Shown one piece after another: positions 8,876 through 62,419 of a stretch of 64,000 nucleotides of DNA (position 1 is its first letter; each line of letters starts with the position of its first letter). The DNA is from Chiloscyllium plagiosum (lineage: Eukaryota), in NCBI RefSeq assembly GCF_004010195.1, contig NC_057739.1:44535734-44599733 (forward strand). Direction: 5' to 3'. Under the pieces are notes generated by a model that saw only the letters and a program-made list of their open reading frames with translations, did no database searches and was not told the DNA's origin. A program made the position numbers and the translations under genes.

Positions 8876-9556
8876 TGAAAAATATCAGATATTTAGTATA
8901 CACAACCAGGGGAAAATGAGTCTTCAGGATACAAGGGAGGGAAAAGACCTGTGATGGGTGGAGGGCAGGTGATCGAAAGTAAGAAGGGAAGCAGAAAGTA
9001 ATAAATGTGAATAATATGTCACTAAAACTTTATTGTGCAATCATCCTAACTCCAGTCCTAAATCCTGTTCACTCTCTGACCACCACTGACGTTCAGTCTA
9101 ATGATAATTCAATAACTGAGGTTGTATTTTTGTTTTTAAAGGTTTACATGGCCTTGGTGCACGTCCAGCAGCATCTGAGTTCTCTGCACTGAAATATCAG
9201 CGTCTTCTGGCTGTTTGTGTATTTATGCATTTGTTTTTTATTCTTTTGAGACATGTCACTGGCAAAGTCGGTGATCTGTTGCTCTTCAGTAATTAGCCTT
9301 TAACTGAGGGGATTGCTTGGCCATTTCAGAGGATGTGTGTATCAGTCCCTTTGCTGCAGGTCTGGAGGGGCGGGTAAGGTTGATTCCCTAAAGGACATTA
9401 GTGAACCAAGTGAGCTTTTGGTAATGGAGACAATCAAACAGAGACTGGCTTTTAATTCCAGATTTATTGGTTAATCATATTTAAATATCACCAGTTGCTG
9501 TGGTGGATTTGAGCCCAAGTCCCCATAGCATTAGCCTTTCCCACTTCTCCTTAAAA

Positions 9557-9704
9557 GTCAGAAGTCACACGCCACCACGTTATAGTCCCAACAGGTTTAT
9601 TTGAGTAGCGCTCCAAAAGCTTGTGATTTCAGAGAAACCAGTTGGACTATGATGGTGGTGTGACTTCGGACTTTGTCCATCCCAGTCTAACACCACCACA
9701 TCAT
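9557..9704. mobile_element. Family C inverted-repeat element (Penelope-like terminal repeats)
   Basis: Arms TTATAGTCCCAAC / GTTGGACTAT; 14 bp TSD acttctccttaaaa at 9543-9556 and 9705-9718. Confidence 0.75.
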
Positions 9705-10165
9705 ACTTCTCCTTAAAACCTAGCTTTCTGACCAAATTCTCTTCAGTCACCGTTCTAATACAATACTTCCTTATGTGTCTGTCATGGTTTGCTTGAAGTT
9801 GCTCTGTCAAAGCACTCTAAACACTATAAAATGCCCCAAGGTGCCTGGCAAATGCAGGTTGTTATTATTTTGGGTGGATTATTAATCATAGGGACAGGAG
9901 GAGGCCATTTAACCCTTCAAGTCTTGACTGTAATCAGTGACATCATAGCTGATCTGTGTCTTAACGTCATGTACCCATATTCCTTAATATTTTTTGTTAA
10001 TAAAAATATATCAATCTTTGTTTTAAAATTAGTAATTGATCTAGCTCGATTGAGTAGTGGAAATTGCTTCTATGAGAATGGTGATTAATTTCTGGCAAAG
10101 GTTCCCTTGTACCCTTTCCACTGTGTATTTCCTTTGCAATGTAAACTCTGCTTTTCCCCGAATAG

Positions 10166-10248
10166 CCATTGAATCCAAACCCTGACAGTCGATGGAACAC
10201 GTACTTCAAGGACAACGAGGTTCTCCTGCAGGTGGATAAAGACGTCCG
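10166..10248 (+). CDS. TBC1D13: TBC1D13 exon 6 (PLNPNPDSRWNTYFKDNEVLLQVDKDVR)
   Basis: aatag acceptor, gtaagc donor; IxxDxxR-type TBC arginine-finger motif. Confidence 0.96.
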
Positions 10249-12099
10249 GTAAGCAGAATGACGTGACAAAAGCAAATAATTACGTAACATCTTTCATGTG
10301 CATGGGACATCCTCCAAAGCATCTTCGCAGCTGTTAAGTCACTTTAGCGTTTGTGTGTTTGTTGGTATAACTTTGTAGTCCGTTTGTGTAGAGCAAGGTC
10401 ACTCATTTAACAATTGTTGTGGAATGTGGGATGAGGATGGAGCCTGTTCCACAATAGTTTATATCCTGGCTTCTCTGTGCCTCCACTGTGTCTGAACCGC
10501 TGCTGCCTAATCCTTCTGACCTTTACCAGTGAAACAAAGTATGATGATTCCAGCTGATGTTACTACTGGACAAATTGGTTTCCAGAATAAAGTTTGGCTT
10601 GATATATCATATTTTGGATTTTTAAAAAGTTAACATTGGCTTTTTCCTGAAACATAAGCAGATGAGGCTGCAGATTTTTAACAATAAAATAGAAGTTGAT
10701 TACACAAAAGAAGAAATAAAATAAACCGGACAAAGGTATCTAAATACAGTATCATTTGAAAGATTTCAAAATACAGGCAAAACAATATCTCCTCTGCTCC
10801 GAGCACCTTACATTTGATCAAAATGAGAAATTTGTGTTTCCTGTCTTCCAGTATATAACCTGATGGAATGGTTTCCTGTGAGCTGAAAAACCTATTCTTT
10901 GAATTTTATTTGAAATTTGAACAAAGAAGTTAGCCCTTAGACTTTCTCAGCTTGAATAACCAATGCAAGTTTCAAACGAACACTCCTGATCTGAAGATTT
11001 TCCAAACTGCTCTTTTTCATGGAGGTAACTTACCTTCGTAACTGCTCTGAACAATCCCTTTTCTCTTTCTAGTAGAGATTATACTTGCATCTGACCTCAG
11101 TCAGGTCCCTTTTGAACTGAACCCAAAGGTTTTTGAACTAAATTTATTTTTTTTTTAAAACTTGCTAATCCTAGATTTTGCTAAAGTTAATGGTCTAAAG
11201 CTTATTCTCTTGTGTTGTAAAACACGGTGGTATCAGCAAACATTCATTAACGCTCCAGAGTTTAGCTCTCAAGTGTTATCTAATACATACTAGTTTAAAA
11301 CGTCATGGTTTGAAATGACTGACCTAATTAATATTTAAATCTCTTCACAAATGTAAACCAGCACCCATATGCCACTGGTTTGAAATCCAAAATTTTAAAG
11401 ATTTTATTTTTATCTGTACATGTATAGATCTCTCACCATTAATCACAATATTAACTTCCATCTTGATGGCTGCAATTGTCTCCCAGTATTCACAACTTTT
11501 TGCAGAAGAGAATTTCGCATTTTTTTAAATGTGAGAAAGTTTGCTTTCCAATTTTCCTTCTAAATGATTAAGCTCTAATTTAAAACTCCCTTCATTCTTG
11601 ATTTCTCACCACACACCCCCAATATGTACCTGCATGCACCCACCCCACCCGAACCAGAGCAAATCACTTCTCTATATTGACCCTGTTGGATCCTTCAAAC
11701 ATTATAACTATCTTTTTCTGTTATTGGGATGTGGGCATTGACTTCTCCAACATTTGAGATAAGGGCCTGGGAAAGAGTGAAGCATTTGCTTGTAAGATTT
11801 GTCCTTGTTTTAGTTATTCATTATCTGGATGTGGGTGGCATTATCAATGCTGATATTTCCTGGTTTACCCAGGAAAGTGATGGAAATGCACCTTGAGCCA
11901 TTGCAGGCTGTGGTAACTTGCCAAAGGAGGGGTTGTGATATCTTGAGTTACAGAATTGTACAATGCAGAAGGAGGTGATTGGACTCCATACTTAGGCTAA
12001 CCAGTTCAGTTCCTCTGTACTTGCTACAGAGTCGATGATTTTTTCCTGTCATGTCCTGCATGTACATTTCTTATGTATTCATAATTCATTATTGCTCCT

Positions 12100-12410
12100 T
12101 ACTTCATGGGATCTGGGCATCACCTGACTAGACCAACATTTATTGCCCATCCCTAATCTCCTAGACGGAAGCTGTACTGGGTCTGGAGTTGCATGTAGGT
12201 CAGACTGGGTAAGGATGGCAGATTTACATCCCTGAATTTGTTAACCAGGCTGGGTTTTTGACTGTGGTTACATGGTCACTGTTAGGCTGGGTTTTTATTG
12301 AATTCAGATTTCACAATTTACCCGTGACGGGATCCAAACCTGTGTCCCCAGAACTTTAGCCTGAGTTCTCCAATTATTAGTCCAGTGACGTTGCCATTAC
12401 GCCACTGCTC
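12100..12410 (-). mobile_element. tRNA-type SINE, same family as 8345-8875
   Basis: Reverse complement of the same head and tail (atttattgcccatccctaat). Confidence 0.7.
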
Positions 12411-12747
12411 CCCATTCACACTGCCAATACTAGACCCGGAGCCATCAGTACCTCACCCAAGTGTTACCTCGCCAGTTTTGGATGGTTGGAAGCATATGCT
12501 CCCCGACGCATGGGAACAGAGTCTGTAAAATTCAATCTGTTTGTCATTTGATATTAAGGAAATTACATTGAAGAGCTGCAAGTCTTGAAATAGCTGGATT
12601 TTATTGAAATGCCAGTGACAACTCCAAATAACCTCCTTATTCTGATAAACCTTGAGTTTTGCTTGGAGGAAAGGGAGGATAGTGAAAATAAATAGGGGGT
12701 AAAATTGAAAATTTCTATCTCTCATAACTGCCCTCTTGTCTATTGTC

Positions 12748-12966
12748 GACAGGCAGGGGGCTGAAAGAACACCGTTAAGCCAGACAGCATCAGGAGGTGG
12801 ACAAGTCGACGTTTTGGGTGTAACCCTTCTTCAGGACTCCACCCCCAGTCCTGAAGAAGGGTTGCACCCGAAAAGTCGACTTCACCCTGATGCTGCCTGG
12901 CTTGCTGTGTTCTTCCAGCCTCCTGCCTGTCTACTTTGATTCCAGCATCTGCAGTGTTTTTGTTTC
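12748..12966. mobile_element. Inverted-repeat element with a hammerhead core in each arm (family A variant)
   Basis: Arms ~12748-12840 and ~12846-12931; core agtc-CTGAAGA-A-GGGT-tgc-ACCC-GAAA-ag-TC-gact at 12847-12881; imperfect TSD tgtct(a/g)ttgtc. Confidence 0.8.
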
Positions 12967-13053
12967 CTGTCTGTTGTCCCTGCATTGTGCTCCAATTTGT
13001 ACATGGTTAGCTGTACCCTTACCTGCAACCCTAACTTGTTTTCTCTCTCCTAG

Positions 13054-13213
13054 ACGCCTATACCCAGACATGGCATTTTTTCAGCGTCCCACTGATTACC
13101 CGTGCCTTTTGATCATGGACCCTCAGAATGAGTTTGAAACACTTCGCAGGCGGGTAGAGCAGACCACCCTGAAGTCTCAGACTGTTGCGCACAATCGGAG
13201 CGGCGTTACAAAC
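13054..13213 (+). CDS. TBC1D13: TBC1D13 exon 7 (RLYPDMAFFQRPTDYPCLLIMDPQNEFETLRRRVEQTTLKSQTVAHNRSGVTN)
   Basis: cctag acceptor, gtaagg donor; strong similarity to human. Confidence 0.97.
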
Positions 13214-13939
13214 GTAAGGTCCTCATTGTAGGGCAATCCTACTTTTAATAACCAAATAGCAACAATTTGCCTGTCTCCCTCCTCCCCTATTTGCATGTCT
13301 ATGCTACTGACCTCAGAGGCTCCATGTGAAAGGAAGTTCACTTTCTCACTGATTTCTGGGAAAAAACATTTCCCCTCATTCCCTTTTGGATTAATTGGTG
13401 TCTATTTTATAATTATGCCCCTTCCAAATTTTGGTTTCCTTTTCAGTGAAAGCACTTTGTCCACATCTAATCTGTCTTAACTTTTAAAGCCTTTGGGTTA
13501 TCCCGCCACCTTTAATGGAGACAAAACAAGGCTTAACCTGTTTAGTGCCCTTGTTAATTATACCTTCTTAGTATTTATATCAAACTCGTAAATCTTTTTG
13601 CCTCTTCATCGGTATTTCTGTAACCATTTTAGTCATATGGAGGTCAGAACTTTTCCAAGTGCTTTCTAGTGTGGTCTAACTAAAGTTTTACAAAGTTTAA
13701 CATAACTTCTGAGCTTTTGTAATCCCTCTGGAAAACAATCAAAGTGCTAAATTTCTTTTTATTGCCCAATGTATTTGTGTTCCTACCTAGTTTCTTGTGT
13801 ATCTATATCCCCAGATCCCTCCACTCATTTCATTGGCCTCTGGATTATTAGTCCAATGATATTCCCATATCACCACTTGATATAACTTCATTCACATTAA
13901 CACAGAAAACAGAATGTAAAACAGAACTATATTCTTACA

Positions 13940-14151
13940 CTGAAAAATGTGTTGCTGGAAAAGCGCAGCAGGTCAGGCAACATCCAAGGAGCAGGAGAAT
14001 CGACGTTTCGGGCATAAGCCCTTCTTCAGGAAGAAGAGCTTATGCCCGAAACTTCGATTCTCTTGCTCCTTGGATGCTGCCTGACCTGCTGCGCTTTTCC
14101 AGCAACACATTTTTCAGCTCTGATCTCCAGCATCTGAGTCCTCACTTTCTC
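13940..14151. mobile_element. Family A near-perfect palindromic element (~88 bp arms plus ~35 nt tail)
   Basis: 17 bp direct repeat ctatattcttacactga at 13927-13943 and 14152-14168; hammerhead core on - strand at 14001-14030. Confidence 0.85.
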
Positions 14152-14345
14152 CTATATTCTTACACTGAGCATTAAGTCTGATTTAAAATTGTAATTCCAA
14201 CTATCTGATGGGAGCTACACTGCTGTTGTCAAATTTTGTTACAGTTACTTTCAGGGGATCTCCCATTCTGCACTCTCCTACCATAGCTTTTATTCCATTT
14301 TCCCCCCTGTTGCTGATTCCCTCCCCATCTCCTTTCTTTGAACAG

Positions 14346-15672: not shown

Positions 15673-16909
15673 GTAAGAAATTGTGCAATGAGAGAGGAGT
15701 GAAATCTGGGGAGTCCCATTCAATCATCACCCCTTAAGCTCGCTGACTCACACATGCTACTGACTGTCACATCTTTATAATTATATAATTTTTTTAAAAA
15801 TCTCCATCGTTTTGGTCTTCCCTGTCTCCATAATCTCCTCCAATTCTGGCCCAATATTAACAGTGCTCTCTTTGATGATTATACCTTCAGTTATTTTGCC
15901 CAGAACTCTGTAATTCTTTCCCTTAACTCCGTCTGTCCACCTGCTTCCTGAAATGTATATCTTTGGCCAAATTTCATAATGCTTCATGTAGCTCAGTCAA
16001 ATTTTGTTTGATATTCCTCTGAAGTAGCTTGGAAATGTTTTACTATGCTAATAGGGCTACATAATGCAGGTCATTCTGCAAAGGGACCAAAAAGGGGAGA
16101 CACCAATTTGTTGAGGGTTACTACAAACTGAATGTGAGCTCAAGCTTAGAAAAGAGAAGGGTCCTTGTGACACAATGCCCTACCTCTGAGCCAGAGGCCT
16201 GGGTTCAGGTTCCACCTGTTTTGGAAGTGAGTAATACCATCTCTGTGCAGGTTGGTTAGAAAATATCTTAAAAAAAAAAAAGATGCCTTTACTCAGTTAA
16301 CTATGCAGGGCTGGTTCGGATATAAAATTGGCTATTTGGAGAGCTGAATGAACATTTGAGGGAGTGAATGATTGAAGGCATCTGCTTTTCTATGCTAAAA
16401 CAATTCAATAAGTACTTTACTGACTTGAAAATGTTTTTCATGACATCTACTGTTTTGTGAAAATTGCTATATAAATGCAATTCTTCTTTAAGTTTCTAGG
16501 GTCACAATATCTGAGCTAGAAATAGCTGCCACGGAGCTCAGAGTGTTTATAGCTGCAACGTCCCTTTATGAACACTTTTTTTTTAAAATGTGCATAGCCT
16601 AACCAAAGTTTTTGATTTCAAGTTCTAATCCCTTTTCCCACAAAAGTTAGTGACAATCCCTGAAGATTAAACAGTTTGTGATTTTTCCTGGTCACCAGAT
16701 TAAGCACAAATACCGAATCCGCCCAAATACCCAAGACATGTAAACAGAATAATATGGCCATCATTGGACGTGATCCTGCTAATCAGCTTTTTATTAATTA
16801 ATCCAGACTGTGCTGAGAGCTTCACCAGAAACCAATTTGAGATCATCACTGCACCTTGTGGTGCAATGCAGTTGTGTACGCTAGAATCTACAATGTTTTA
16901 GACCCTGTT

Positions 16910-17012
16910 TTATGGATGTAAGTCTGCTGGTTGAGTTGGAACCTTCCAGCTCAGTGACCAAACTTACATCCAGAACCTCAACCTGAGCTACAAATCTTCT
17001 CAAAACTCGCTA
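16910..17012 (+). mobile_element. Penelope-like 3' terminus with a short inverted arm
   Basis: acctgagctacaaatcttctcaaaact resembles the tail at 52586-52620 (reverse complement); upstream part matches 21885-21915. Confidence 0.6.
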
Positions 17013-17523
17013 ACCCTGTTTAATGTCGATGAAAGGAATTTAGATATACATTGCACCTTTTTTAATTGGAGCAAAAAGATATTATGAGACTGCCAATCCC
17101 TGTTGCATTCCCATGGCAACACCCTGACCATTCAGAGTCTATTCACCTGGTCTGCAGTTAGCTGTTCCTGCTGCATCTTTATGCCAGTGATGGCTCAACC
17201 AGTCAGTACACTCTTCTGATGTTGTGCATGCTTTGTCCCATTTTCCAAATCCATTTCTTGCATAAGTGTTAGATATAGAGCTTCAACCTGTTTCTCCTCC
17301 TATTGATGTTATGTTGCTAAATAAATCTAAGGGCCAAGGCAATAGAAGGATATCTCAATACTGTTGGGTTTAAGTAAAATTGGAAGAAGCTTGTCTTGAA
17401 CATAAACATCAGACTGGCCCAAACAACCTGTTGCTGCTATACCATGAAATGAGTATTGTTTTATGATGAATAATTCAGCTGAGTGTCTTGTGCTGATGAG
17501 GGTCTGTACATTTTATGCTTCAG

Positions 17524-17684: not shown

Positions 17685-20254
17685 GTAAGTAACAAAACCT
17701 GTGGTTTCAGTTGTTGGTGAAAGATCAAGGGCAACTCTTGCCCCTTCGAGGGTGTAGACTACCCTTTTCTAACCAGCAAACCACCAGCTTTTGGGTGGGG
17801 TTGGTGGTGGTGCCAGGTTTGTCTGTCGATCAAATTCATTAGTGGGTTGCATGCTTGACCAGCAAGGCTGGAATTTGCCATTTATTTCCCCAGAACTGAG
17901 TGGCTTGTTAGGTCATTTCGGAGGGCAGTTAAGAGTCAACGACATTCCTGTGTCTCGGGGATCATGTCTAGGCCAGACTGGGCACGGGAACCATGGAACT
18001 GTTGTCAATTGTTGTGAAAAACCCAACTGGTTCACTAATGCCCTTCAGAGGGGGACATCTGCCACCCTCACCTGGTCTGGCCTACATGTGACTGCAGTCC
18101 CAGAGCCAAGGTGACTGACTCTCAACTGCCCTCTGAAATGGCCTTGGACGTCACTCAGTTGTACCAACAAAGAAATGAAATTGGACAGACCATCTGGCAT
18201 TTACCTAGGCATCGGGAAGATAACAGCAAAACAGTCCTGTCGACTCTGGAGAGTGATCCCAGAACTGGGAGAGCTGTCTCACAGAATCGTCAAGCCGCAG
18301 CCTGACTTAGTATACTCATGGAATCATACCTGACAATCGATGTCCCAGAAACCACCATCACCACCACCATCCCTGAATGTGTCCTGTCCCATTGGCAGGA
18401 CAGACCCAGCAGAAATGGCAGCACAGTGTTGCCTTGGGAGTCCACCAACTGGTGTAATGGGATTTGAATTCATGGCCTTGGGGCATTATCCTCAGGTTTG
18501 TTATTGCAGTGACATTACCATGGCGCCACCCAGTCTCACTGTTTCAGCAGAAGCTCCACATGTCACCTATCTGGCTCGGAGAATCCTTTGGCATGAATTG
18601 ACTGGCAGGTTCACTGAGAGGTGAAAGTGACATTTATCTCACCACCCCCTCAGCTCACCGCCTCATTCCTGATGAATTACTTTTGCCCGAAACGTCGACT
18701 CTCCTGCTGTTCGAATGCTGCCTGACCTGCTGTGCTTTTCCAGCACCACACTCTCAACTCTGGTTCATTGAGGTTAATGGCACCTCATGGAGAACCCCTT
18801 TAGCAACTGCTTCACTCTCATGCGGGTCGAAGCACAGAATGTGGTCTTATCAGTATGTGCTGGCCTGGAGAAAGGGAATTTTCCACCTCGCCCCATTCCC
18901 CTTCTCTTTCCATGTAGCCCTGAATAATACCCCTTTTGAGTTTATATCCAACCCAATTTGTCTGCTGTGGGTAACACATTTCCCTCTGAAATGGACCATG
19001 TGGGTTCACGTCCCATTCTTGCCCACATCCCATGAGTGAGTTAAAAAACCATCGGAGATGTTAAACCAGGACTTTGTCTCTGGATTACTAGTCTCCAACT
19101 GACAGTGTCACTAATTCAAAGAAGAGCTGGGGTGTTCTGCCTGGTGTTCAGGCCAAAGTGCTATTGCCTCGCTTCATGTGGAATCTTGCTATGTACATAT
19201 TGATTGGCTGTGTTTCCTCCATTGCAGTGGGGTTTGTCATTGGCTGTAAAACACTTTGGCGTGTTTTGTCTTGGTGAAAGTTGTTAATGAAATACAAGCA
19301 CTTCAATTTCTGGGGTCATTTCATTGAGATCAATTAAAGGGTGCTTCCTCCTATAATTTAGAGAATTATATATTTGAAGTGTGTGTCAGATTTGCACATC
19401 TGAGATTGGTCTCCTGTTTTGTGAGCAGGATTCTCCTTTGCTGACCGTCCCAGGTTGTAATTTGTGCTTTTAAGATGAGAATAGTCAGTCAGTTACGGAG
19501 TTGAACTAAATATGATTCTTAGGCAGCAGAGTTTTGTTGTTTTGTCTTTATCAGATTTGACCTGAAATGAAGTTACACAGGCAGAGTGCAGTTGAGTGTG
19601 TCCTAATCTCTTCAGATTCAGGTATTCTTGAGCTGTTGCACAACAGATCTGGGGATTGCCAATGAAAGTTCCCCCACCCTTCAGTCTCTTGTTATTATAC
19701 TGATTCCCTATTGGAAACTTTTTGCCTGTAAAATGTAATTGATCCAATCAACTGTTGGAATTTATGATTTTGTACTGCAGTTCATTTAATCAGATGTTGC
19801 TGTATCTCATTGGTTATGTTTCAACAATGCAAGAAAGCAAATTGCTTTAAAACTGGGTGCATTCAAATGGAAAACCGTGTAGAACTGGTACATTCTTGGA
19901 GTGACGGAATTGCAGCAGTTATTTTTTCTAAAAGAAATGAGGGCAGGATGTGGAGAGAGGAAATGTAAACAATCCTAACCTTCAGAATCCACGTTTGTGA
20001 AGGTTCAGACTTCATAAGTTCTTCATTTGCTTGGAGCTGCTCAATTTATCTCATTTACTATTTTTTTGAGAAAGTGGAGACTAGAATTCAATTAAATGGA
20101 ACCAGTGGTAAATAAATTTGATTGTTTTAAATAATTTTGGACATGTTTATGATAAATTTGACTGTCAATGAGAATGATGGGAGGAGCATGTCGGATCCAG
20201 AGTTTCCTTAATGGATTTATCACACCTTGATACCGTGACCTGTTTTTCTTGCAG

Positions 20255-21627: not shown

Positions 21628-21915
21628 CGAGAATTCCTAGAAGCAAGGCATTCCAACCAGAAAGCTATAAACAAACGCATTGACTTGGATTCCATTTACC
21701 AACCCCTGAGAAAAAGAACAGGAAATGAGATCACTATATGAAATGATGTTACCACAGGAAATGACACCACCAATCCAAGGAAACCCAAACATATAAATAG
21801 AAAGCGGGCTACACCACCAGTGCTTCATCCGGAGGCTCACTGAAGATGCTACCTAGTATGGTGACGAAACATCTGAGAATGAACGTTCCAGCTCAGTGAG
21901 CAAATCTACATCCAG
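21628..21915 (+). mobile_element. Penelope-like element 3' fragment with hammerhead core
   Basis: Translates as REFLEARHSNQKAINKRIDLDSIYQPL, similar to REFLEAWHS at the 52817-53077 ORF end; core ctca-CTGAAGA-T...GGTGAC-GAAA-ca-TC-tgag at 21836-21877. Confidence 0.8.
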
Positions 21916-22249
21916 AGTGAAATGTGTTAATACTCTGTTGGTGCAGAGTGTTTTCACTGTATTGGAGGCAGATTCAATGGTAACTTTCAAATGGACTAAT
22001 TGACTCTACCACCTCAGCCCTGCTGATGAGGTGTTTGCTTCTGGTTACCTCATTTACCATTACCAGACTGCCCCTTGTCTGTAGCTAGTACAGCAGGACT
22101 TCCTTCAAGAGGCCAAAACATTATATGGGGGAAGTCCAAGGACTGTACCACTTTTCACAGATATACCAATTTCTGTGCAGGGATGGTCGTGCTAGTAACC
22201 TCCTTCCCACCCCCCCAAACAAAATTGCTTGATTTGATTGATTTTTGTC

Positions 22250-23567: not shown

Positions 23568-23880
23568 AGTCAAAATGTGTGGTGCTGGAAAAGCACAGCC
23601 GGTCAGGCAGCATCCGAGAAGCAGGAGAGTCGACGTTTTGAGCATAAGCTCTTCGTCAACATCTGCAGTCCTCACTTTCTTTTAGGGTCTGGAGAAAGTC
23701 AGGTCTGGCAGCATCTGTGGAGAGAAACTGAGTTAACGTTTCAAGTCCAGTGACCCTTTTTCAGTTAAGACTTGAAATGTTAACTTTGCTTCTCCTTCAC
23801 AAATGCTACCTGCTGAGTTTCTCCTGAAATTTCGGGATTTTGTTTCAGATTTTCAGCATCCACAGTTCTTTGTTTTATTT
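23568..23880. mobile_element. Adjacent family A (deleted centre) and family B inverted-repeat elements
   Basis: tctggagaaag repeated at 23557-23567 and 23688-23698; B arms GAGTTAACGTTTC / GAAATGTTAACT. Confidence 0.65.
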
Positions 23881-28180: not shown

Positions 28181-28756
28181 GCCTGAACGTTCTCCCTGCA
28201 AGTGTGGTGGTAACGGAAAGGAAATCAGGTGTGCTCTTGAAGGAAATGAATTCACGGGGGCTATGTGGCTAGAGCTGGGGGATGGTAGGAGCTGGTGTGA
28301 ATTCAGTGGCTGCATGGCCGTCTTGCTGTAACGCCGTTGACTATGATGCATTTTTGAGCAGGGAGGGAATTGGCAGGAATTGAGGTTGGAGCCATAAGCA
28401 TTGAATAAGCTAGCAGCCTTCAAGGGCTAAATGGCCCCTTCTAATGGTCTTCGATTTCACAATGTACTGTTACGGTCAATGGAAATAACTTACACTTCAG
28501 ATTGTTTTAGGTTTATATATAGTTGTTTACCTCAATGTTGGTATGCTCCAGTTATAATAATAGTAACCTTCTTGTACTGCGTGTGATCCTTAAACCCATG
28601 AGAATATTGCAGCATCCTTTGCACAAGTCAAATAACCAGACTGGTTCCCTGGCAGTGTTTTCCCAGTTGTCTGCCCTACTCACAGACATCGACAGTAGCT
28701 CCGAATTCCCAGTAATAGTCTTTGTAATCCAGAAATAGTGTGTACAAACAGGCTCA

Positions 28757-28960
28757 AACAAAACAGAAATTGCTGGAAAAGCTCAGCAGGTCTGGCAGCA
28801 TCTTGGAGAGAAATCAGAGTTAACATTTCAGGGTCCTGTGACCCTTCCTCAGAACTGTTAACTCTGATTTCCCTCCACAGATGCTGCCAGACCTGCTGAG
28901 CTTTTTCAGCAATTTGTTTTGTTTGATTTCCAGAATCCGCAGGTCTTTCGGTTTTTATTT
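28757..28960. mobile_element. Family B inverted-repeat element with a hammerhead-like core on the - strand
   Basis: Arms ~28757-28826 and ~28856-28924 plus ~36 nt tail; reverse-complement core agtt-CTGAGGA-A-GGGTC-acag-GACCC-t-GAAA-tg-TT-aact. Confidence 0.75.
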
Positions 28961-29937
28961 AGTATGAACAGATCGTTGGAGACTGTTGTAGGATCATGTG
29001 TTTTTGGCTCCACTGGAAAGAGGGATGGGGAGGGTGGTTTGAAATTTTTACAGGACCTCGTCATCTTTACAACTGATGTAGAAAATAGGCAAGTGGCCCG
29101 TTCAAGTCAATTCAAGAAACACATTCACACTTTACAACAAACAGGTAATAGTTGGAAAAGTTGGCAGTTACTTCCCTTTTTTTTAATATTCTGTTTTCTC
29201 TGCATTTCATCTGCTTCAAATGAATCCTATTTGCCCGCAGGAGATTTTTTTATGTGGAACTGAACCTGTCATATACCTTTTTCAACTGTCACCTCAATAG
29301 TTGAATTACATGTTTAGTTGGATATGGAATAACAGTTGTCCTCAGCCCAGTTTACTGTCAATGGACCAAGATCTCTGACTTGTTTCACTATGGGTTAATG
29401 TTATACTGGATTTTTTTTTCTAAGCCTCTGCTTCGAATTGCTCTGTAGCAAGAGCAGACCTTATTTGTACTGGAGGTCAGATAATTCAACAGCACAGAAG
29501 AAGCACTTTGGCCCATCAAGTCTGCACCAACCTTTCTTCAAAAATCCCACTTTCCAGCACTTGGCCCACAGCCTTAATAGTTATGACATTTCAAGTGCCC
29601 ATCCATGTACCTTTTTTCTTTTTAAAAGGTTGTGAGATTTCCCACCTTCACTACCCTCCCAGGCAACAGATTCCAATTCCCACCAAATTCTGGCTGAAGA
29701 AGCCTTTTCTCAAATCCACTCTAAACCTGCAGTTTTTCATCTTATAATTATGCACACACCCCATTTCGATATTGACCCTTCAACTACCGGGAGCAGCTCC
29801 TTCCCATCCACCCTTCTTAATCTTATACACCTCCATCAGGACCCACTCAGTTTTTTCTCTTCTAAAAAGAGCAACGCTAGGCTATCCAGCCTCTCGTCAT
29901 AGCTAAAATACTTTTTCTCCGGCAATATCCTGGTAAA

Positions 29938-45089: not shown

Positions 45090-45220
45090 GAGGAGAAAGT
45101 GAGGGCTGCAGATGCTGGAGATCAGAGCTGAAAATGTGTTGCTGGAAAAGCGCAGCAGGTCAGGCAGCATCCAAGGAACAGGAGAATCGACGTTTCGGGC
45201 ATAAACCCTTCTTCAGGAAG
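45090..45220 (-). mobile_element. Family A terminal fragment with hammerhead core
   Basis: Core at 45188-45217 (- strand); TSD ttcaaaactc at 45080-45089 and 45227-45236. Confidence 0.8.
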
Positions 45221-46920: not shown

Positions 46921-47200
46921 CCCTAATGTTTCATGTTTTTTTTCTTGCCTCCCATATGTTCTAATTTCTTTTTTTGAAGAAAACCCCTGAGTTTTCTATA
47001 CCCGAGGGCATCAAGTATTTTTGCACTGGTGTAACCTGATCTGGAGGTTTTGTGAATGTTGTGCATAATTGCACTTGACTGATAAAACATTGGATTGCAA
47101 TTACCATTAAATAAAGTAATTCTGCTAGGCTCTTCCTTTTGCTTAGGAGGCACAACTTATGGAATTATTATATCAGTTCAGTTTGAGCTAAACAAATGGA

Positions 47201-47415
47201 GTTGAAGAGTATGGCACTAGAAAAACACAGCCGGTCAGGCAGCATCCAAGAAGCAGGAGAATCGACATTTTGGGTATAAGCCCGATTTCTGATGGAGAGT
47301 TTATGTCCAAAGCATCGATTCTCCCTCTCCTCAGATGCTGCCTGACCTGCTGTGCTTCTCTAGCGCCACAGTCTTCGCCTCTGATCTCCAGCATCTGCAG
47401 TCCGCACTTTCTCCT
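47201..47415. mobile_element. Family A inverted-repeat element
   Basis: 15 bp TSD agctaaacaaatgga at 47186-47200 and 47416-47430. Confidence 0.85.
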
Positions 47416-47430
47416 AGCTAAACAAATGGA

Positions 47431-47611: not shown

Positions 47612-49079
47612 ATCTAAATCCTAATATTACAAATAACATCGAAACTGGGAACACAGGAGCAGGCTCTCTGGCTCCTCAAGCTTCTGTCATTCAATAATTT
47701 CATGGCTGATCTGGTTGTTCTCTCCATGTTCCTGCCTGCTCTTGAACAGGTCACTGCCTAAGGATACAATGTAGGCCATTTAAGACTCAGATCAGGAGAA
47801 ATGTCTTCACCCAGAGAATGATGAGCCTGTGGAATTCTCTTAACACATAAAGCAGTTGAGGCTAAACCATTGAATGTTTTCAGGAAGGAGTTAGATGCAG
47901 TTGCTAGGGCTAAAGTGATCAAAGAATGTGGGAAGAAAGCAGGAACAAGAACTGAGTGAACAATCAGCCATGATCACGTTGACAGCTGACTCCAAGAATT
48001 GAACGTTTCCCGATGAAGGGCTCTGGTCCGAAACATTGATTTTCCTGCTCCTTGGATGCGACCTGACCTGCTGTGCTTTTCCCAGCAACACACTCTCAAC
48101 TCTGATCTCCAGCGTCTCCACTGTCTCCAAGAACTGAATGGTCTACTCCCTCCTAGCTGTTGTGTTGACCAATATTACCAAACCCTCTGTTCAGCTGCAG
48201 AGCCCAATGAGTCACTGCTTTGCACTTTGAGCAAGTTAATGTTTGTTTAACTTAATTTAACTTCATTCTCAATAAGGTGATCAGCACTTGGGGCTTATCG
48301 ACCTCTCCCCATAGCTCTCCTGCTTAACCAAAATGTCGAAAAAAGATTTTTCAGTTAGCTCTGCTCCTTGAAATTTTTAATGGTCATTTTTATTTGTTGT
48401 CTACTTAAATTGTCAATTTATTTCTTTGGATTTTCCTAATTCCTGTGTACTGTTATACCAAACCTTGCATGACTTGAAATTGCTCATCAACTCTGAAGTG
48501 AGAAAAATTGAAAATTGGTAATAAGACTGGACAGCCTTGTTATAAAGAGTACTTTTTTTAACAGTTAACATTTTAAGTTCATAGACTTTTTCCCCCAGAG
48601 TTCCACAATCTGCACCTTGCTCCCTTCTCTGTCTATTAAAAAAATCCATTTACCAACACCATTCAGTTCTGAAGAGTCCTACCAGACGACATTAATTCTG
48701 TTTCTCTCTCCACAGACGCTGACAGACCTGCTGAGTTTCTACATTCTTCTCTGCATTTGTTTCGGATTTCCATAATTCACAGTATTTTGCCTTTTGCAGA
48801 TGGTGGAGAGGCTCAGCGCAAAAGTCAAAGGGCTTGTTAAAGGCTCTGAAGGGGTGTGGTGGGGAGAAAAAGATGTAAAATGTGTGTGAATGAAGGCAGT
48901 GTCTATCAATTTCTGAAGGCCCAGTTGATTCTGCACTGCTGTGAGGCTCAAGCTGAAATAAAGAACAGATTATGATGTGGTCAGTTTCTGAAATTACGGA
49001 ATTTGATGTTGAGACCTTAAGGTTGTAAATTGCCTAAACAGAAAATGATGTGTTGCTGAGTTTCTCTAGCATTAAAATA

Positions 49080-49620: not shown

Positions 49621-50277
49621 GTGGTCTGGTCGGCCCAGTGTGGAGACTCCTGGAATAGACTGCGTGGGGAAAGCATGGCAAAGAGGAGGAGATCGAGCCC
49701 TTGCAGGAAGTGTGGTCACAGCATGGCTAAGCACTTTCAAAAGTCTGCAATGTTTGAATTTTAGCTTTATTTCTTTATTTTTCAACTTAAACATTGCAGT
49801 AATTCTTAATATTAACTTTTAACTTTGTTCTTTCTTCCTACTCTGTTCTTGTGATTCTGTACCTAGGTAATTGTAGCTAAGATGGTGGTTGTGTGACTAT
49901 CTAGAAAGTACCCTGATCTATCCTTTCTTTGTCCAAAATGGATACATTGAACTCCATCTGCACAGTTTTACCCATTCACTAAGTCTATCAATATCTCTTA
50001 GTAATTTTACGCTAAGATCTACGCTGTCTACAAAACTGTTTAACTGTGCCATTTAGATACATGACTTTCTATGCCATTATCTGAATCATTTTAATAAATA
50101 ATGTGAATAAGTGAGGCTTTAACACAGACCCTTACTCATTACCCCTACTTTCTCTCACTTACTGCACCACCAATCAGCCAATTCCATAGTCTGCAACACT
50201 GAACTCTAAAGACTAATTCTGCTTTCTTTCCTAGGTGCTGCCAGAGTTTCTCCAGAAATTTCCAGAGTTTATGATCC

Positions 50278-50465
50278 ATACACCAGATTATTGTCCAACA
50301 GATTTATTTGAAATCACAAGCTCTCAGAGTGCTGCCCCTTGATAAACCACTTCACCTGATGAAGGAGCAGTGCTCTGAAAGCTTGTGATTTTAAAATAAA
50401 TCTGTCGGGACTACAACCCTTGAGGTGTGACTTCTGACCTTGTCCACCTCAGTCCAACCACCTCT
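50278..50465. mobile_element. Family C inverted-repeat element with hammerhead core
   Basis: cac-CTGATGA-A-GGAGC-agt-GCTCT-GAAA-GC-TT-gtg at 50353-50387. Confidence 0.75.
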
Positions 50466-50967
50466 GTTTGTGATCTGGCTCAGTCGCCTGTTCCATAACT
50501 TGTTTGTGTGATTTCTTTAGCCCTCGAGTGCTTATAATACAACTCCTTGAAATCATACAATATTTTAGTATCAAAGCAAGCAAAACAAAAATCAGCAGTT
50601 ATTGAATTTGGCATCTGATTTTTTTGTAAATATATTTATTAGCAATTTCTTTAACTTTACAACCATATGAAATTATTGAAAAATACAATCAATAACAAAT
50701 ATCAGTATAATAAAGGGAAAAAACACAAATTACAATGCAACTACTGTCTACAAATTACGAACCTACCCTATAATACAAAACAAACCCTAACACTGTGCAA
50801 AGCAACACCAATAAATAAGTAATAACTAATAGATAAAAAAGAAAGAAAAGCAAAAGAAAACACAAAAAACAAAACAGCTATGCTCGGAACAAAGCTCCCA
50901 TACAAAAGAACTGATTTGGAGATGCCTGTGTTGGACTGGGATGTACAAAGTTAAAAATCACACAACA

Positions 50968-51293
50968 CCTCTTTTCCCTGGGGTCGGGGAGTCCAGAACT
51001 AGAGGGCATAGGTTTAGGATGAGGGGAAAGAAATAAAAGAGGTCTACAGGGCAACTTTTTCACGCAGACGGTGGTATGTGTATGGAATGAGCTGCTAGAG
51101 GAAGTGTTGGAGGCTGATATAATTGCAACATTTAAGAGGCATTTGGATGAGTATATGAATACGAAGGGCTTGGAGGGATATGGGCTGGGTGCTGGCAGGT
51201 GGGACGAGACTGGGTTGGGATATCTGGTCGGCGTGGACGGGCTGGACCAAAGGGGCTGTTTCCACGCTGTACATCCCTATGACTATGACCAGG
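50968..51293 (+). mobile_element. CR1/HER1-like 3' fragment inserted into a family C arm
   Basis: Family C sequence aaaatcacacaacacc (to ~50969) resumes as ccaggttgtagtccaacag (~51289). Confidence 0.85.
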
Positions 51294-51739
51294 TTGTAGT
51301 CCAACAGGGTTGAAAAGTGTGTTGCTGGAAATGCGCAGCAGGCCCCTGAATTTGTCTAGAGCGATTATTGAGAAGCGATTTTCGTTTCTAACAGACGGGT
51401 TGGACCAAAGGGACTGTTTCCGTGCTGTACATCCCTATGACTATGACCAGGTTGTAGTCCAACAGGGTTGAAAAGTGTGTTGCTGGAAATGCGCAGCAGG
51501 CCAGGCAGCATCCGGGGAGCAGGAGAATCGACATTTCGGGCATGAGCCCTTCTTTGGGAATGAAGAACCACCACCGGAAGAAGGAGCAGCACCCTGAAAG
51601 CTAGTGCTTCCATTTAACCCTGTTGGACTATAACCTGGTGTTGTGTGATTTTTAACTTTAAACAAAAGAACGGGTGCATTGTAGATGTACTAACTGGCAT
51701 CTGATTTCTAGCATCCATGCACGGTTTTGGTATTGATCT

Positions 51740-52370: not shown

Positions 52371-52585
52371 TAAAAAAGAAAGACCATTCAGGCCATCGTA
52401 CCCTCTGATTCAGGCCATTCAAGCCCCCTTGAAACAATCGGGTTCTGAACTAGAGGCATATGCCACTGGTACACTTGATGTGAACAGGGGTTTTGTCAGA
52501 AATGTCAAGGGAGAGATAGCGAGGACTGCAGATGCTGGAAAGACAGTGTAGATAGACTGTGGTACTGGAAAAGCACAGCAGTTCC

Positions 52586-53790
52586 AAGTTTGTGAAAAGA
52601 TTTGTAGCTCGGGTGCTCGTTGTTGTTCTGTTTGCCGAGCTGGGAATTTGTGTTGCAGACGTTTCGTCCCCTGTCTAGGTGACATCCTCAGTGCTTGGGA
52701 GCCTCCTGTGAAGCGCTTCTGTGATCTTTCCTCCGGCATTTGTAGTGGTTTGAATCTGCCGCTTCCGGTTGTCAGTTCCAGCTGTCCGTTGCAGTGGCCA
52801 GTATATTGGGTCCAGGTCAATCTGTGGATGAGTGCCATGCCTCTAGGAATTCCCTGGCTATTCTCTGTTTGGCTTGTCCTATAATAGTAGTGTTGTCCCA
52901 GTCAAATTCATGTTGCTTCTCATCTGTGTGTGTGGCTACTAAGGATAGCTGATTGTGTTGTTTCGTGGCTAGTTGGTGTTCATGGATGCGGATCGTTAGC
53001 TGTCTTCCTGTTTGTCCTATGTAGTGTTTTGTGCCGTCCTTGCATGGGATGTTGTACACTACATTGGTTTTGCTCATGCTGGGTATCGGGTCCTTCGTTC
53101 TGGTGAGTTGTTGTCTGAGAGTGGCAATTTCATCAACAGATGCCTAAGGGAAAGACAACGGAACGAGGACATGCCACAACCCAAAGGACTAGCCACACTA
53201 CCATACATCAAGAGCATTTCCGAACTGACAGCCAGATTACTGCGACCACTAGGACTCATAACAGCACACAAACCAACGGCCACTCTCAGACAACAACTCA
53301 CCAGGATGAAGGACCCGACACCCAGCATGAGTGTATAGTGTACAAAATCCCATGCAAGGACTGCACAAAACACTACATAGGACAAACAGGAAGACAGCTA
53401 ATGATCCGCATCCATGAACACCAACTAGCCACGAAACGACACGACCAGCTATCCTTAGTAGCCACACACACAGATGACAAGCAACATGAATTCGACTGGG
53501 ACAACACTACTATTATAGGACAAGCCAAACAACAAGGGAATTCCTATAGGCATGGCACTCATCCACAGATTCAATCCATAAGCACATCGATCTGGACCCA
53601 ATATACCGACCACTGCAACGGACAGCTGGAACTGACAACCGGGGAAGCGGCAGATTCAAACCACTATAAATGCCGGAGGAAAGATCACAGAAGCGCTTTA
53701 CAGGAGGTTCCTAAGCACTGAGGATGTCACCTAGACAGGGGATAAAACGTCTGCAACACAAATTCCCAGCTCGGCGAACAGAACCACAAC
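52586..53790. mobile_element. Penelope-like retroelement, inverted tail-out structure: - arm 52586-53125, + arm 53126-53790; GIY-YIG endonuclease remnant
   Basis: VVYNIPCKD...HYIGQTGRQLTIRIHEH in both arms; 14 bp TSD agcacagcagttcc at 52572-52585 and 53791-53804. Confidence 0.92.
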
Positions 53791-53817
53791 AGCACAGCAG
53801 TTCCTTCAAGCAAAAGC

Positions 53818-54224
53818 TAAAAATCACACAACATTAGGTTATAGTCCAACAGGTTTATTTGGAAGCACTAGCTTTCGGAGCACTGCTCCTTCATCAGGTC
53901 GTTGTGGAGTATAAGATCAACTTAAAGTTTATTTAAGAATGTAACTTTTAAATGTTCTGTGATTTACATATGAAAGAACTGAAACCAACATGTTCATTCT
54001 AAAAGATGAGAGACTTAACAAACAATCCAGGTCTTTTTCAATATATAATTTCAGTTACATCACACTGTAAACTTTTGCTATAAATTCTGTGTTGTACAAT
54101 CTTATTCTCCACAACCACCTAGCATTCCAAAAACTAGTGCTTCCAAATAAACCTGTTGGACTATAACCTGGTGTTGTGTGATTTTTAACTGTACATCCCA
54201 GTCCAACACCGACGCCTCTAAATC
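53818..54224. mobile_element. Family C inverted-repeat element
   Basis: Arms aaaatcacacaac...gtccaacaggtttatttggaagcactag and its reverse complement; hammerhead core at 53866-53900 (- strand). Confidence 0.8.
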
Positions 54225-54519
54225 AAAGAAAAGCATCCTTGAAGAGTCCTGCCCAACTCTGCTGCTCCTCAGATGCTGCCTGACCTGCTATACTTTCCCA
54301 GCACTACACTGTATCTACTCAGAAATGCAAAGTGAAAGAGACATTTGGATAAATACATGAAAAGGAAAGGTTTGGAAGGATATGGGTCAGGTGCAGACAG
54401 GTGGGACTAGTTTGGTTTGGAACAATGTTCGGTGTGGACTGGTTGGGCCGAAGTGTCTGTTTCTGTGCTGTATAAGTCTAAAATATGTGCAGGACTGTGG
54501 GGAACAACCAGGGTGGATA

Positions 54520-54725
54520 AAAAGAAAAACCGAAACCACTTCGGATGCGGTGAATTGGAAACAAAAACAGAAATTGCTCAATGCTCAGCAAGTCTGGCAG
54601 CATGTGTGGAGAGAGAACAGAGTTAACAGAGGTTTCTGAAGAAGGGTGACCGGACCAGAAACATTAACTCTGATTTCTCTCCACAGATGCTGCCAGACCT
54701 GCTGAGCTTTTCCAGCAATTTCTGT
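54520..54725. mobile_element. Family B inverted-repeat element
   Basis: Arms cagaaattgct...cagagttaac / ttaactctg...agcaatttctg; core CTGAAGA...GAAA at ~54636-54666. Confidence 0.7.
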
Positions 54726-55114: not shown

Positions 55115-56329
55115 CCACCCCCACCAATAGATGCTGCCAGACCTTTTTGGGTTTTTCCAGCGCTTTCTGTTTTTTTAAATTTCCCTAAGTGCCCCTTCAG
55201 TCATAGTTGAGAGTGTGGTGCTGAAAAAGCACAGCAGGTCATGCAGCATTCTCGAGGAGCAGGAGAATCGACTTTTTGGGCGTAAACCCATATCAGGAAA
55301 TTATGCCCGAAATGTCAACTCCTCTTGACTTTGATCTCCAACATCTGCAGTCCTCATATTCTCCTAGTAGCCCTTTCAGTCAGAAGGTTCTGGGTAGAGT
55401 AGTATTCCGGGATAAAATACAATCCCAGCATGGTACTGAGGGAGTGCTGCAGTGTTAGACATACTGGCTTTCCATTCAGACACTAGGCCAAAACCTCTCC
55501 CTCCCTCCCTTCCTTAGGTGAATTGAAATCCTGAGGGGCTGGCTCACACTCTGGAGTTGAGTCCAAATCCCAATATGGCAGCTGTTGGAATTTAACTTCA
55601 ATTACTAAAATTCTGAGATGTAAAACTAATCACCGTGAAGGCGACTAACAATCTACCATCAGCTTCTGTAAAAGCCCATCTGGTTCATTGATTTCCTGAC
55701 GAACTCTGGCTGACTTATGACTCCAGCCCCAAAGCTAAGATTGACATCCAGCTGCCCCTCTGCAATGGCCTAACAAACCATTCAGTTTAAGGCGTCATGA
55801 AGCATGGACAATAATATTTTGATAGTGGCATAATCAAGGGAAAAAATAATAAAGAGAAAAAAGTTCAAAGTTTTCCTAAATTATAACAGCGATGTCACAA
55901 GAAGTTCATTTGCTGTAAAGAGCTTTCGCACACTCCAAGGTCATGAAAGGTGCTATGGAAATGCAATCCTTCTTTGTAATCCACTTAATTGTTCTCCAGA
56001 GAAGTGAGAAAACCAGGGAGCACAGATTTCAAGTCATTGTGGAATGATTAGTGGGGATGTGAGAACACATTTTTTCACCCAGAACGTAGTAAGCATCAGG
56101 AACTCATTGTCTGAAAAGGTGGTCGAAGTAAAAACCTTCATTTAAAACCTAATTTAAAAGTATTTTATTGTTTACTTGAAGGAGCGTGACCTGCAGGTCT
56201 AAAGACCAACTGCACAAAGCTGGGAGTAGCTGATTAGCTCATCACAAGCCATCACATATGATGGCCTGACTGTCTAGCTTCTATGCTGTAATTTTTCTGA
56301 TTCTATAATGATTAATTGTCCTTTTAAAA

Positions 56330-58195: not shown

Positions 58196-58204
58196 AAAAA
58201 ATGT

Positions 58205-60875: not shown

Positions 60876-61044
60876 CAAAGTTTAATCATAAATGTGTAAC
60901 TCTATCATTTTGCCTTGTGAAGCATCGTCCGTGAGTGTAAATATTTTAACTTGAACTCCATGAAGGCACTTATGGGTGATATACCAGAATATGCTTTATT
61001 CAAAGAATAATCTGCAATTTTAAAACAATTGCGTTGTATTTACT

Positions 61045-61350
61045 GGGATGCAGGGAAAGGGGTATTTGCTGGGCAGACCCAGGTGGGTGGATTTGCTGAG
61101 ACACTTGGAGAGGAAGTTATTTACAGGATCTCAGGGAGATGGGTATTTATAGGGAGGGGATTTTCCAGGGATAGGGTATTACAAAGAGGGGGTATTTGGG
61201 GTGTTTATAGAGGGAGGGGTTTTTTACAGGGAGGATGCTTTTTGGGGGTATATATAGAGNNNNNNNNNNNNNNTGGTATTTTGATAGGTCTATAGAGGGA
61301 GGGGGGTAATTAGGGGGATGGGGTTATTTATGGGAGGGGGTTTTCCAGGG
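61045..61350. repeat. Degenerate G-rich tandem repeat (~20 bp, GGGTATTTATAGGGAGGGG-like) containing an assembly gap (N at 61260-61273)
   Basis: Direct reading. Confidence 0.8.
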
Positions 61351-61351
61351 A

Positions 61352-61472
61352 CAGCGCCACCAGCTGGTTCCAAATGTTACAGCGGATGGACCAATAGGAG
61401 CGGAGCTTGTGGCTCTCGCCCAGCGGCCAATTGGAGCGGCCGTTACTGTGAGGTGGTGCGGCCAACATGGCG
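61352..61472 (+). promoter_or_regulatory. TATA-less CpG promoter: CTCF-like motif (61352-61367), CCAAT boxes (61391, 61427), YY1-like AACATGGCG overlapping the ATG
   Basis: cagcgccaccagctgg, ccaat, ccaattgg, caacatggcgg. Confidence 0.65.
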
Positions 61473-61502
61473 GAGAGGGAGAATGTGTGGACAGAGCGGA
61501 AG
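61467..61502 (+). CDS. SPOUT1: First coding exon (MAERENVWTERK) of the next gene, probably SPOUT1/C9orf114
   Basis: Strong Kozak gccaacATGG, AAG|gtgagt donor, CpG island; MAER start and TBC1D13-ENDOG-SPOUT1 neighbourhood recalled from human; only 12 aa are visible. Confidence 0.55.
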
Positions 61503-61730
61503 GTGAGTGCGGCCGAGAACCTGGGGCTCTCTCCCCTCCCCCCCTCCCCCCTCAGTCGGTCCGGGCTACAGGGAGAAGCTGTTTCCTTTCCGTCTCCCTC
61601 TCCCGGGGCCGGGATCACCCTGAAGCTGCTTTCCGAGAGAGTTTGATCCAGCGGCGCCTTGAGGGCAGCAGTGAGCCGGGGGGAGTGAGGGGGTGCTCAC
61701 ATTGAGATATTCAGTAATACTCTGCTCAGA

Positions 61731-61926
61731 GGTTAAAAAAACCACACAGCACCAGGTTATAGTCCAACAGGTTTATTTGGAAACACCATCCTTCGGAGTG
61801 CTGCCAGGTCGTCAACCACCTGAAGGAGCAGCGCTTCCAAATAAACCTGTTGGACTATAACCTGGTGTTGTGTCTTTTTTTTTAGACTTTGTCCACCTCA
61901 GTCCAACACTGGCACCTCCACATCAT
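61731..61926. mobile_element. Family C inverted-repeat element
   Basis: caccaggttatagtccaacaggtttatttggaa and its reverse complement, plus ~38 nt tail. Confidence 0.8.
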
Positions 61927-61993
61927 GTTCAGAGATTGTATTGCATCTTGAAGCTGGACCCCCTGGCTCAGAGGTAGGGACATTACCACTAGA

Positions 61994-62141
61994 TTCTGGA
62001 TCAATGCCTTTATTCCTGATGATGGGCTTTTGCCCGAAACGTTGATTTTGCTGAAGCTCCTCGGATGCTGCCTGAATTGCTGTGCTCTTCCAGCACCATT
62101 GATCCAGAATCTGGTTTCCAGCATCTGCAGTCATTGTTTTT
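61994..62141 (+). mobile_element. Family A element with hammerhead core and a 16 bp inverted arm
   Basis: TSD acattaccactaga at 61980-61993 and 62142-62155; core CTGATGA-T-GGGC-tttt-GCCC-GAAA-CG-TT from 62016. Confidence 0.8.
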
Positions 62142-62419
62142 ACATTACCACTAGAGCCACTCCCAGCCTCACGTTTGCAGACACAGCAAATGCAAGGCTT
62201 CTTTAAAGGTTAAACATGAAATACTTTCTAATCAACCTTCAGCTGGAGCAGGTGGGATTTAAACCCAGGCCTCCTGCTCAGTGGTGGGTATCTATCACCA
62301 TGCCGTAAGAACCTGGCCAAGGTAATGTCGCCATAGTCTTACCAAACCATACAGGTGTTATCTCCTGAGAGATGACTGGTGGTATTTTAACCTAATGGTC
62401 ACCACGTCTCGGGTAAGAA

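Follow-up and report, generated by a model that had tools for sequence, protein, structure and literature searches.

Head-to-head Penelope-like element stubs in Chiloscyllium plagiosum carry a single tail and likely reflect priming from both target strands

Elements in the window

The window analyzed here, 64,000 nucleotides of the shark Chiloscyllium plagiosum genome (assembly GCF_004010195.1, contig NC_057739.1, positions 44,535,734 to 44,599,733), is rich in repeats, has a G+C content of ~43% and contains reverse transcriptase (RT) pieces of long interspersed nuclear elements (LINEs). Scattered through it are short palindromes that look like miniature inverted-repeat transposable elements (MITEs) and appear to be insertions of Penelope-like elements (PLEs); on a hand-made list, about 30 PLE pieces total ~5.9 kb of the 64 kb. 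A preliminary description had pointed out ten of these palindromes. Self-BLAST of the window for inverted pairs, combined with an element-by-element search, added seven (16910, 18618, 23688, 50280, 50912, 52513 and 55210), giving a set of 17 two-armed elements. Each consists of two inverted arms, one of which runs on into an extension, the tail; its length was measured against the sister arm and is given as a range where 2-4 nt fit both the target-site duplication (TSD) and the element. Elements are named by window position and assigned to families A to D.

Sites of the preliminary description:
9543..9718: family C stub (9557-9704); tail right, 30-33 nt; exact 14-bp TSD, 9543-9556/9705-9718
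12737..12978: family A variant (12748-12967); hammerhead core 12851-12873 (+); tail right, 36 nt; 11-bp TSD with 1 mismatch
13927..14168: family A (13940-14151); arms 95% alike; hammerhead core 14029-14006 (-); tail right, 34-38 nt; exact 17-bp direct repeat, 13927/14152, of which 4 nt fit the element too
28754..28961: family B (28757); hammerhead core 28852-28826 (-); tail right, 34 nt; degenerate TSD, score 5
47186..47430: family A (47201-47415); tail right, 34-36 nt; exact 15-bp TSD, 47186/47416
52586..53125 (-): family D, tailed arm of 52586; broken open reading frame (ORF) end covering partner residues 309-463; hammerhead core 52691-52662; 33-nt tail, 52586-52618
53126..53790 (+): family D, tail-less arm of 52586; broken ORF end starting at partner residue 258, with GIY-YIG motif; exact 14-bp TSD around the arm pair, 52572-52585/53791-53804
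53815..54226: family C (53818); hammerhead core 53897-53873 (-); tail right, 35 nt; degenerate 12-bp TSD with 2 mismatches
54520..54725: family B (54520); tail left, ~47 nt by eye, or ~35 nt if a T-run deletion is allowed; no convincing TSD
61723..61937: family C (61735-61925, 61731 in the preliminary description); tail right, 43 nt, inflated by a T-run; degenerate 9-bp TSD with 1 mismatch
61980..62155: family A variant (61994); inverted arm of 13-16 nt from the inner end, and a long tailed arm with hammerhead core 62016-62039 (+); tail 29-32 nt; exact 14-bp TSD

Additional elements:
16902..17025: D-related (16910); arms ~30 nt; tail right, 37-42 nt; 13-bp TSD with 1 mismatch
18608..18772: family A (18618); ~13-nt inverted arm made of the tail's end, then a 140-nt arm without tail; 11-bp TSD with 1 mismatch
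23675..23877: family B (23688), old; tail right; 10-bp direct repeat with 1 mismatch
50267..50475: family C (50280); hammerhead core 50356-50380 (+); shortened tail right, with no reliable length from the sister-arm alignment; 10-bp direct repeat with 1 mismatch
50902..51671: family C (50912); tail left, 35 nt; element broken up by a LINE-like piece and an A arm; exact 10-bp TSD
52496..54332: family A (52513-54318), outer element; tail left; 14-bp TSD with 2 mismatches
55191..55382: family A (55210); tail right; internal deletion in the right arm; 13-bp TSD with 1 mismatch

Two of the seven additional elements are broken up by later insertions, the outer element 52513-54318 containing both the 52586 and the 53818 insertion. 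The 50912 element also carries a local direct duplication (51286-51342/51444-51500; at least 49 bp exact, spacing ~158) that spans PLE and LINE-end sequence.

One tail per insertion

Two tail-out inverted arms with an extension on only one of them were seen at 10/10 of the sites first described; 52586 and 54520 carry the extension on the left arm, the other eight on the right. The near-constant extension reported there was recovered as well, at 29-38 nt in eight of these elements and 43 nt in 61731; the arm lengths, put at 16 bp to ~500 bp, were measured at 13-16 nt (61994) to ~530 nt (52586). In an unbiased self-BLAST list the tail lies on exactly one arm in 12 of 12 PLE palindromes, which has P <= 0.5^12 = 2.4e-4 if the arms chose independently. 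A candidate with tails on both arms, 45091/45729, was rejected: 45091 has its own TSD, and the two arms differ at subfamily sites.

The five TSDs quoted in the preliminary description (9543/9705, 13927/14152, 47186/47416, 52572/53791 and 61980/62142) are exact in place and length, at 14, 17, 15, 14 and 14 bp. In a chance test that scored direct repeats at both outer ends as length minus 3 x mismatches, and that is not blind since element boundaries were set after sequence inspection, a score of at least 7 was reached by 13/17 two-armed elements versus 10/272 swapped-flank pairs and 12/600 random pairs. Duplications passing the test span 10-17 bp; single-arm copies include 9 bp, for an overall range of 9-17 bp.

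Families and Penelope-like identity

The families had been described as unrelated. This fails for A and B, which share 33 bp at 91% identity, and stands for three groups, A+B, C and D; neither C nor D is related to A+B or to the other. A pattern scan of our own for a hammerhead core plus stem II returned 11 hammerhead-like cores in the window, 10 of them in A, B, C or D arms; the remaining one, at 63314, looks spurious. The predicted ribozymes are minimal: stem I is short, a bulged base precedes stem II, and what remains of stem III is palindromic. An Rfam search of the window gave no hammerhead match, and only sub-threshold matches to microRNA-like hairpins. The motif reads outward in every arm, so both 3′ ends face outward; the window elements are head-to-head or single, not direct tandem units.

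Family D provides the protein evidence. Its 52586 element consists of two broken ORF ends that meet at 53125/53126, and its window frame is 82% identical to the shark protein P0002, with protein relatives from Chiloscyllium, Hemiscyllium, Stegostoma and Rhincodon. P0002, P0007 and P0015 match RVT_1, and Pfam GIY-YIG matches fall below the cut-off for both P0007 (E 0.024) and the family D window frame (E 0.041). By eye, P0002, P0005 and P0007 carry a C-terminal GIY-YIG-like motif and have no Cys knuckle in the RT-endonuclease (EN) linker; on this predicted basis family D fits the Penelope/Poseidon clade by the linker criterion of PMC8557442. An ORF joining RT and GIY-YIG was found for family D only: of the autonomous partners envisaged for each family in the preliminary description, P0002 supplies that of D, and none was linked to A, B or C. 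The PLE status of A, B and C is a putative one, based on predicted hammerhead, layout, tail and TSD. A metagenome scan for further family A copies gave 0 matches. A D-related single arm lies at 21628-21918; it is tail-less, its ORF end is 63% identical to P0002, and a TSD was looked for there and none found.

Taken together, layout, TSDs, hammerhead cores and the GIY-YIG end in D bear out the proposal that these MITE-looking palindromes are Penelope-like retrotransposition products. A classification as MITEs, or as other DNA transposons bearing terminal inverted repeats, has next to no probability: the palindromes are short and non-coding and have direct repeats at their flanks, but one arm is 29-43 nt longer than the other where symmetric ends would be expected, the TSD varies over 9-17 bp instead of being short and fixed, the same arms also occur singly with TSDs, and the elements contain hammerhead cores and, in family D, the end of a retroelement ORF.

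Position of the ends relative to the predicted ribozyme

Measured from the predicted cut, the tailed end lies at 72 nt in D, 82-89 nt in C, 90-98 nt in A and 102 nt in B, and the tail-less end at 39 nt in D, 54 nt in C, 60-64 nt in A and 68 nt in B. The offset between the two ends thus stays at ~33-36 nt while the distance to the cut varies over 72-102 nt. The preliminary description had read the fixed offset as a conserved priming position possibly tied to ribozyme processing. The first half agrees with published work, where it appears as the gap between two RT start sites (PMC11167929). The second half is not supported. Hammerhead motifs do lie at or close to most fold points, and a few ends fall near the cut, the single arm 46354 beginning 2 nt past it and one arm each of 28757 and 54520 lying within ~4 nt; yet the tail boundaries sit 39-102 nt downstream at family-specific distances, 16/19 aligned A arms pass through the cut site by eye, which means that their template was uncut there, and hammerhead mutants leave insertion unchanged in vitro (PMC11167929). 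We consider it extremely unlikely that self-cleavage determines the offset.

For the tail, then, cleavage is refuted; some inner ends may still be set by it. Of the 16 A arms that cross the cut, 14 end at the hammerhead's front edge, ~20-41 nt upstream of the cut (by eye), and a minority of inner junctions lie at the cut site itself. Because stem I is complementary to the bases at the cut, microhomology joining and cleavage yield the same junction, and the two are indistinguishable there. Clustering of inner ends is claimed for family A in the window only. A 5′-truncation hotspot behind 45219 (556 contigs of run X3, see below) coincides with the end of the reference and was set aside as not clean evidence; with a D reference that extends past the hammerhead, no truncation peak appeared among the matches listed.

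Fixed ends in copies beyond the window

Contigs from public runs were aligned to the tailed D arm, and the leading end positions were compared run by run. Among the matches listed, contigs that leave the arm into long, mutually unlike flanks end in run X15 at 52582 (n=89), 52586 (n=77) and 52619 (n=185) of 1419 partly fitting, in run X3 at 52619 (n=169 of 1328 partly fitting), and in run X9 at 52582 only. Position 52619 is internal to the D reference and is the same position as the end of the tail-less arm at 53790. Many copies therefore share two D ends 33-37 nt apart, not the broad random scatter of offsets that would have spoken against a fixed one. Family A ends in X3 peak at 45091/45092 (n=1160 and 507) and 45131/45135 (n=388 and 504 contigs); the inner peak (45131-45136) is displaced by subfamily differences and was not used for tail size. 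Poly(A) reads of run X21 mostly continue into unlike flanks (97% and 79%), and so show copies inside other transcripts, not the RNA ends of the element.

The same contigs bear on whether the palindromes are a miniature, non-autonomous PLE family whose units are transcribed and retrotransposed whole. A few junctions do recur: one opposite-strand joint, 45187-45220, has a depth of 268 in X3 against ~15 on unique flank, and two reach depths of 77-125 in X9. Non-autonomous PLE derivatives are also known, among them retrozymes (10.64898/2026.07.22.740005) and Chlamys-N4 (10.1101/2022.05.23.493040). However, a recurrent stem-I junction is what microhomology by itself would be expected to give, the remaining four opposite-strand joints of X3 among the matches listed are scattered at depths of 22-44, all 13 of 13 window junctions compared are distinct, and the tail changes side relative to the longer arm. 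Whole-unit copying is accordingly very improbable.

As separate observations, some contigs contain direct head-to-tail joints, 45219->45123 (6 contigs, front edge to inner end) and 45220->45091 (2 contigs, to the tail end), and a duplicated-tail joint, 45125->45090. Short tandem units, joined away from the ribozyme cut, thus exist elsewhere in the genome.

Joining of the arms and the arm-tail hairpin

Three elements inform on how the arms were made. In 52586 the upstream reach of the tail-less arm exceeds that of the tailed arm by 153 nt; 18618 has a tailed arm of only ~13 nt, the end of the tail, and a long arm that is tail-less; and the tail-less arm of 61994 consists of the final 13-16 nt ahead of the inner end and is not contiguous with the fold point. 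Either start site can therefore give the long arm, and simple fold-back of one complementary DNA (cDNA) is excluded in these three. A general fold-back route, in which a single cDNA acquires its inverted arm by self-priming or fold-back copying and its tail by endonuclease resolution of the intermediate, has precedents: self-priming from palindromes at inverted junctions is proposed in PMC3846280, and the tail is attributed to EN-mediated resolution in PMC8557442. Near-perfect palindromes such as 13940 are compatible with it, and hammerhead stem I, an inbuilt short inverted repeat, is where several of the fold points fall. But a copy cannot hold sequence missing from its template arm, as would be needed in 52586 and 18618, where the longer arm is tail-less and the shorter one tailed; the short arm of 61994 adds a third contradiction, and the tail-less end is a fixed site in many copies. 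We judge this route improbable.

The sister arm is the best match in 5/8 elements tested and, as noted, all 13 junctions compared differ; both observations fit one-off events. At the tail-less end, microhomology of at least 2 nt (2-4 nt) between TSD and arm occurs in 5/13 elements (P ~0.002; the count omits 55210), and at the tailed end of 52586 four TSD bases match other copies too.

A stem of at least 7 bp between arm and tail can be formed in 13/20 tailed arms. In 11 of these 13 its 3′ strand runs from 6-14 nt inside the tail to 15-20 nt short of the outer end, so that the inner start lies in the loop of the hairpin. In 8/20 tailed arms the stem beats 97% of tail shuffles; as the arms are related copies, the independent count is three groups. 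A compensatory pair, G-C in D to A-U in its relative 16910, lies in this stem. For the Poseidon element PAc of Anolis carolinensis, the letters of Fig. S1B in PMC11167929, taken in file order and without its start-site marks, give a 7-bp stem around an AC-rich loop.

A proposed two-strand priming reaction

This analysis itself shows the layout and its TSDs, the hammerhead motifs, family D's GIY-YIG end and the two 3′ ends 33-37 nt apart. We consider it likely that each element is a head-to-head pair of 5′-truncated PLE 3′ ends between TSDs, produced in one event in which both nicked strands prime, one at each of two fixed RNA start sites ~35 nt apart. Biochemistry of the Anolis Poseidon protein is consistent with this: it cleaves and extends both strands, is a predicted dimer, and starts reverse transcription internally at two sites that bound the tail, one of them in an AC-rich stem-loop (PMC11167929).

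In such a reaction, nicks staggered by ~10-17 nt would create the TSD. One strand would prime at the outer site and give the tailed arm, the other at the inner site and give the tail-less arm; both cDNAs would stop early, in family A mostly at the hammerhead front edge, and repair would join their inner ends. More tentatively, the arm-tail hairpin might position both starts, and pairing of 2-4 nt between target and RNA might aid some priming events. The palindromes would then be dead one-off products rather than a self-copying unit. A stricter version, in which the two ends are coupled and asymmetric, each start site being used exactly once per event and one per target strand, is in our estimate evenly poised between right and wrong; in it the two sites would straddle the 3′ strand of the hairpin, with the inner start inside the loop and the outer one 15-20 nt beyond the stem, a geometry that would be kept in three sequence-unrelated families.

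Several observations weigh against two-strand priming from two fixed sites or limit its reach. The TSDs of 28757, 53818, 54520 and 61731 (4/17) score 5-6, inside the tail of the null distribution, and TSDs have 40% G+C against 43% for the window, so no clear AT preference is seen. Single-arm copies with TSDs exist, 6087 and 45091 tailed and 58324 tail-less; a second arm is thus not obligatory. A lone family A arm at 48007-48135 stops ~20 nt inside the tail and is accompanied by a 14-bp direct repeat (1 mismatch). At 23553-23680, also family A, the left arm stops ~16 nt inside the tail and the right piece is the last 24 nt of the tail only; this copy is at odds with the two-site rule and does not fit. 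The sister arm is not the best match in 3/8 elements, 7/13 tail-less junctions show no microhomology when compared with the sister arm, 7/20 tailed arms have no 7-bp stem, and the z-scores obtained from single-strand folding stay modest (+0.6 to -2.6). A tblastn search of the window with three D-type proteins found D copies only and no partner for A, B or C. In vitro, start sites did not differ between strands, and initiation took place at RNA non-homologous to the cut DNA (PMC11167929); strict one-sidedness and microhomology are therefore not shown in that system. For families A-D the mechanism draws on sequence together with analogy to PAc biochemistry.

If correct, coupled two-ended priming accounts for the inverted pseudo-long terminal repeat (pLTR), the one-sided tail and the TSD as a single reaction, and thousands of shark stubs become a ready data set for it. 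The origin of PLE inverted repeats and tails is stated to be open in PMC8557442, and the steps after initiation are left unvalidated in PMC11167929. One-sidedness, 13-nt arms from either start and the hairpin geometry are concrete predictions for the existing in vitro system. For annotation, short palindromes of this kind, which are PLE stubs common in this genome, risk being mislabeled as MITEs or microRNA hairpins.

Surroundings of the elements

An endonuclease exon at 51837-52373 matches PF01223; it is a host exon, which we take to be part of ENDOG, and lies ~140 nt ahead of the nested PLE cluster. The open frame 13055-13216 is presumably also a host exon, a candidate TBC1D13-like one. Fourteen N at 61260-61273 mark an assembly gap. 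The inverted pair 34163-34373/34680-34890, a 211-bp copy at 99% identity, falls in the RT region within the 3′ part of a LINE-like element and is not PLE; it is either a recent inverted duplication or an assembly error. Inverted pairs 17894/18116 and 3982/5500 were likewise excluded as non-PLE. The former (17894-17938/18116-18160) are arms of another repeat with a 9-bp direct repeat (1 mismatch) 9 nt to the left and 34 nt to the right, probably by chance, though the spacing recalls a PLE tail.

Comparison with known systems

In L1 twin priming, both target ends prime cDNA, and inverted pieces and short microhomology are seen; the second priming site varies from case to case, and the pieces are non-overlapping. 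Here, by contrast, the second site is fixed ~35 nt from the first, which gives an inverted duplication.

Among EN+ PLEs, an inverted pLTR lies adjacent in Pen2a_Av, where one inverted copy bears a 31-bp tail and the TSD is 9 bp (PMC3846280), and an inverted truncated copy with a one-sided 30-40-bp tail counts as a general PLE feature (PMC8557442). The shark elements resemble that unit in the 5′-truncated inverted copy beside the main copy, the tail at one end, the variable TSD and the hammerhead in the pLTR. They differ in TSD length, 8-10 bp there versus 9-17 bp here, and in that most shark copies are 150-250 bp long, lack an ORF and are MITE-like.

Poseidon PAc shares with the family D partner a C-terminal GIY-YIG without a linker Cys knuckle, and with the window elements a tail bounded by two internal 3′ ends, an AC-rich stem-loop lying downstream of the hammerhead and a template that is not cut by the ribozyme (PMC11167929). 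Its strands do not differ in start site in vitro, whereas the genomic copies here use each site once, and its AT-rich target bias is not seen in the window. The main text of that paper does not invoke two-strand priming for head-to-head insertions or TSDs.

The predicted ribozymes resemble the minimal metazoan PLE hammerheads (PMC4209133) and those of non-LTR retrozymes (10.64898/2026.07.22.740005) in their type I core, short stem I, bulge before stem II and palindromic 4-nt stem III remnant. Retrozymes, however, form direct tandem arrays, whereas the window elements are head-to-head pairs with motifs on opposite strands, often truncated.

A literature search, weak in that it mostly lacked subscription papers and Repbase, found nothing specific on a shark miniature form or on PLE twin priming. 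The architecture as such, an inverted pLTR with a 30-40-nt tail and a TSD, is already published and not new. The present analysis adds to it the single tail per insertion, the tiny arms from either site and the shared hairpin geometry.

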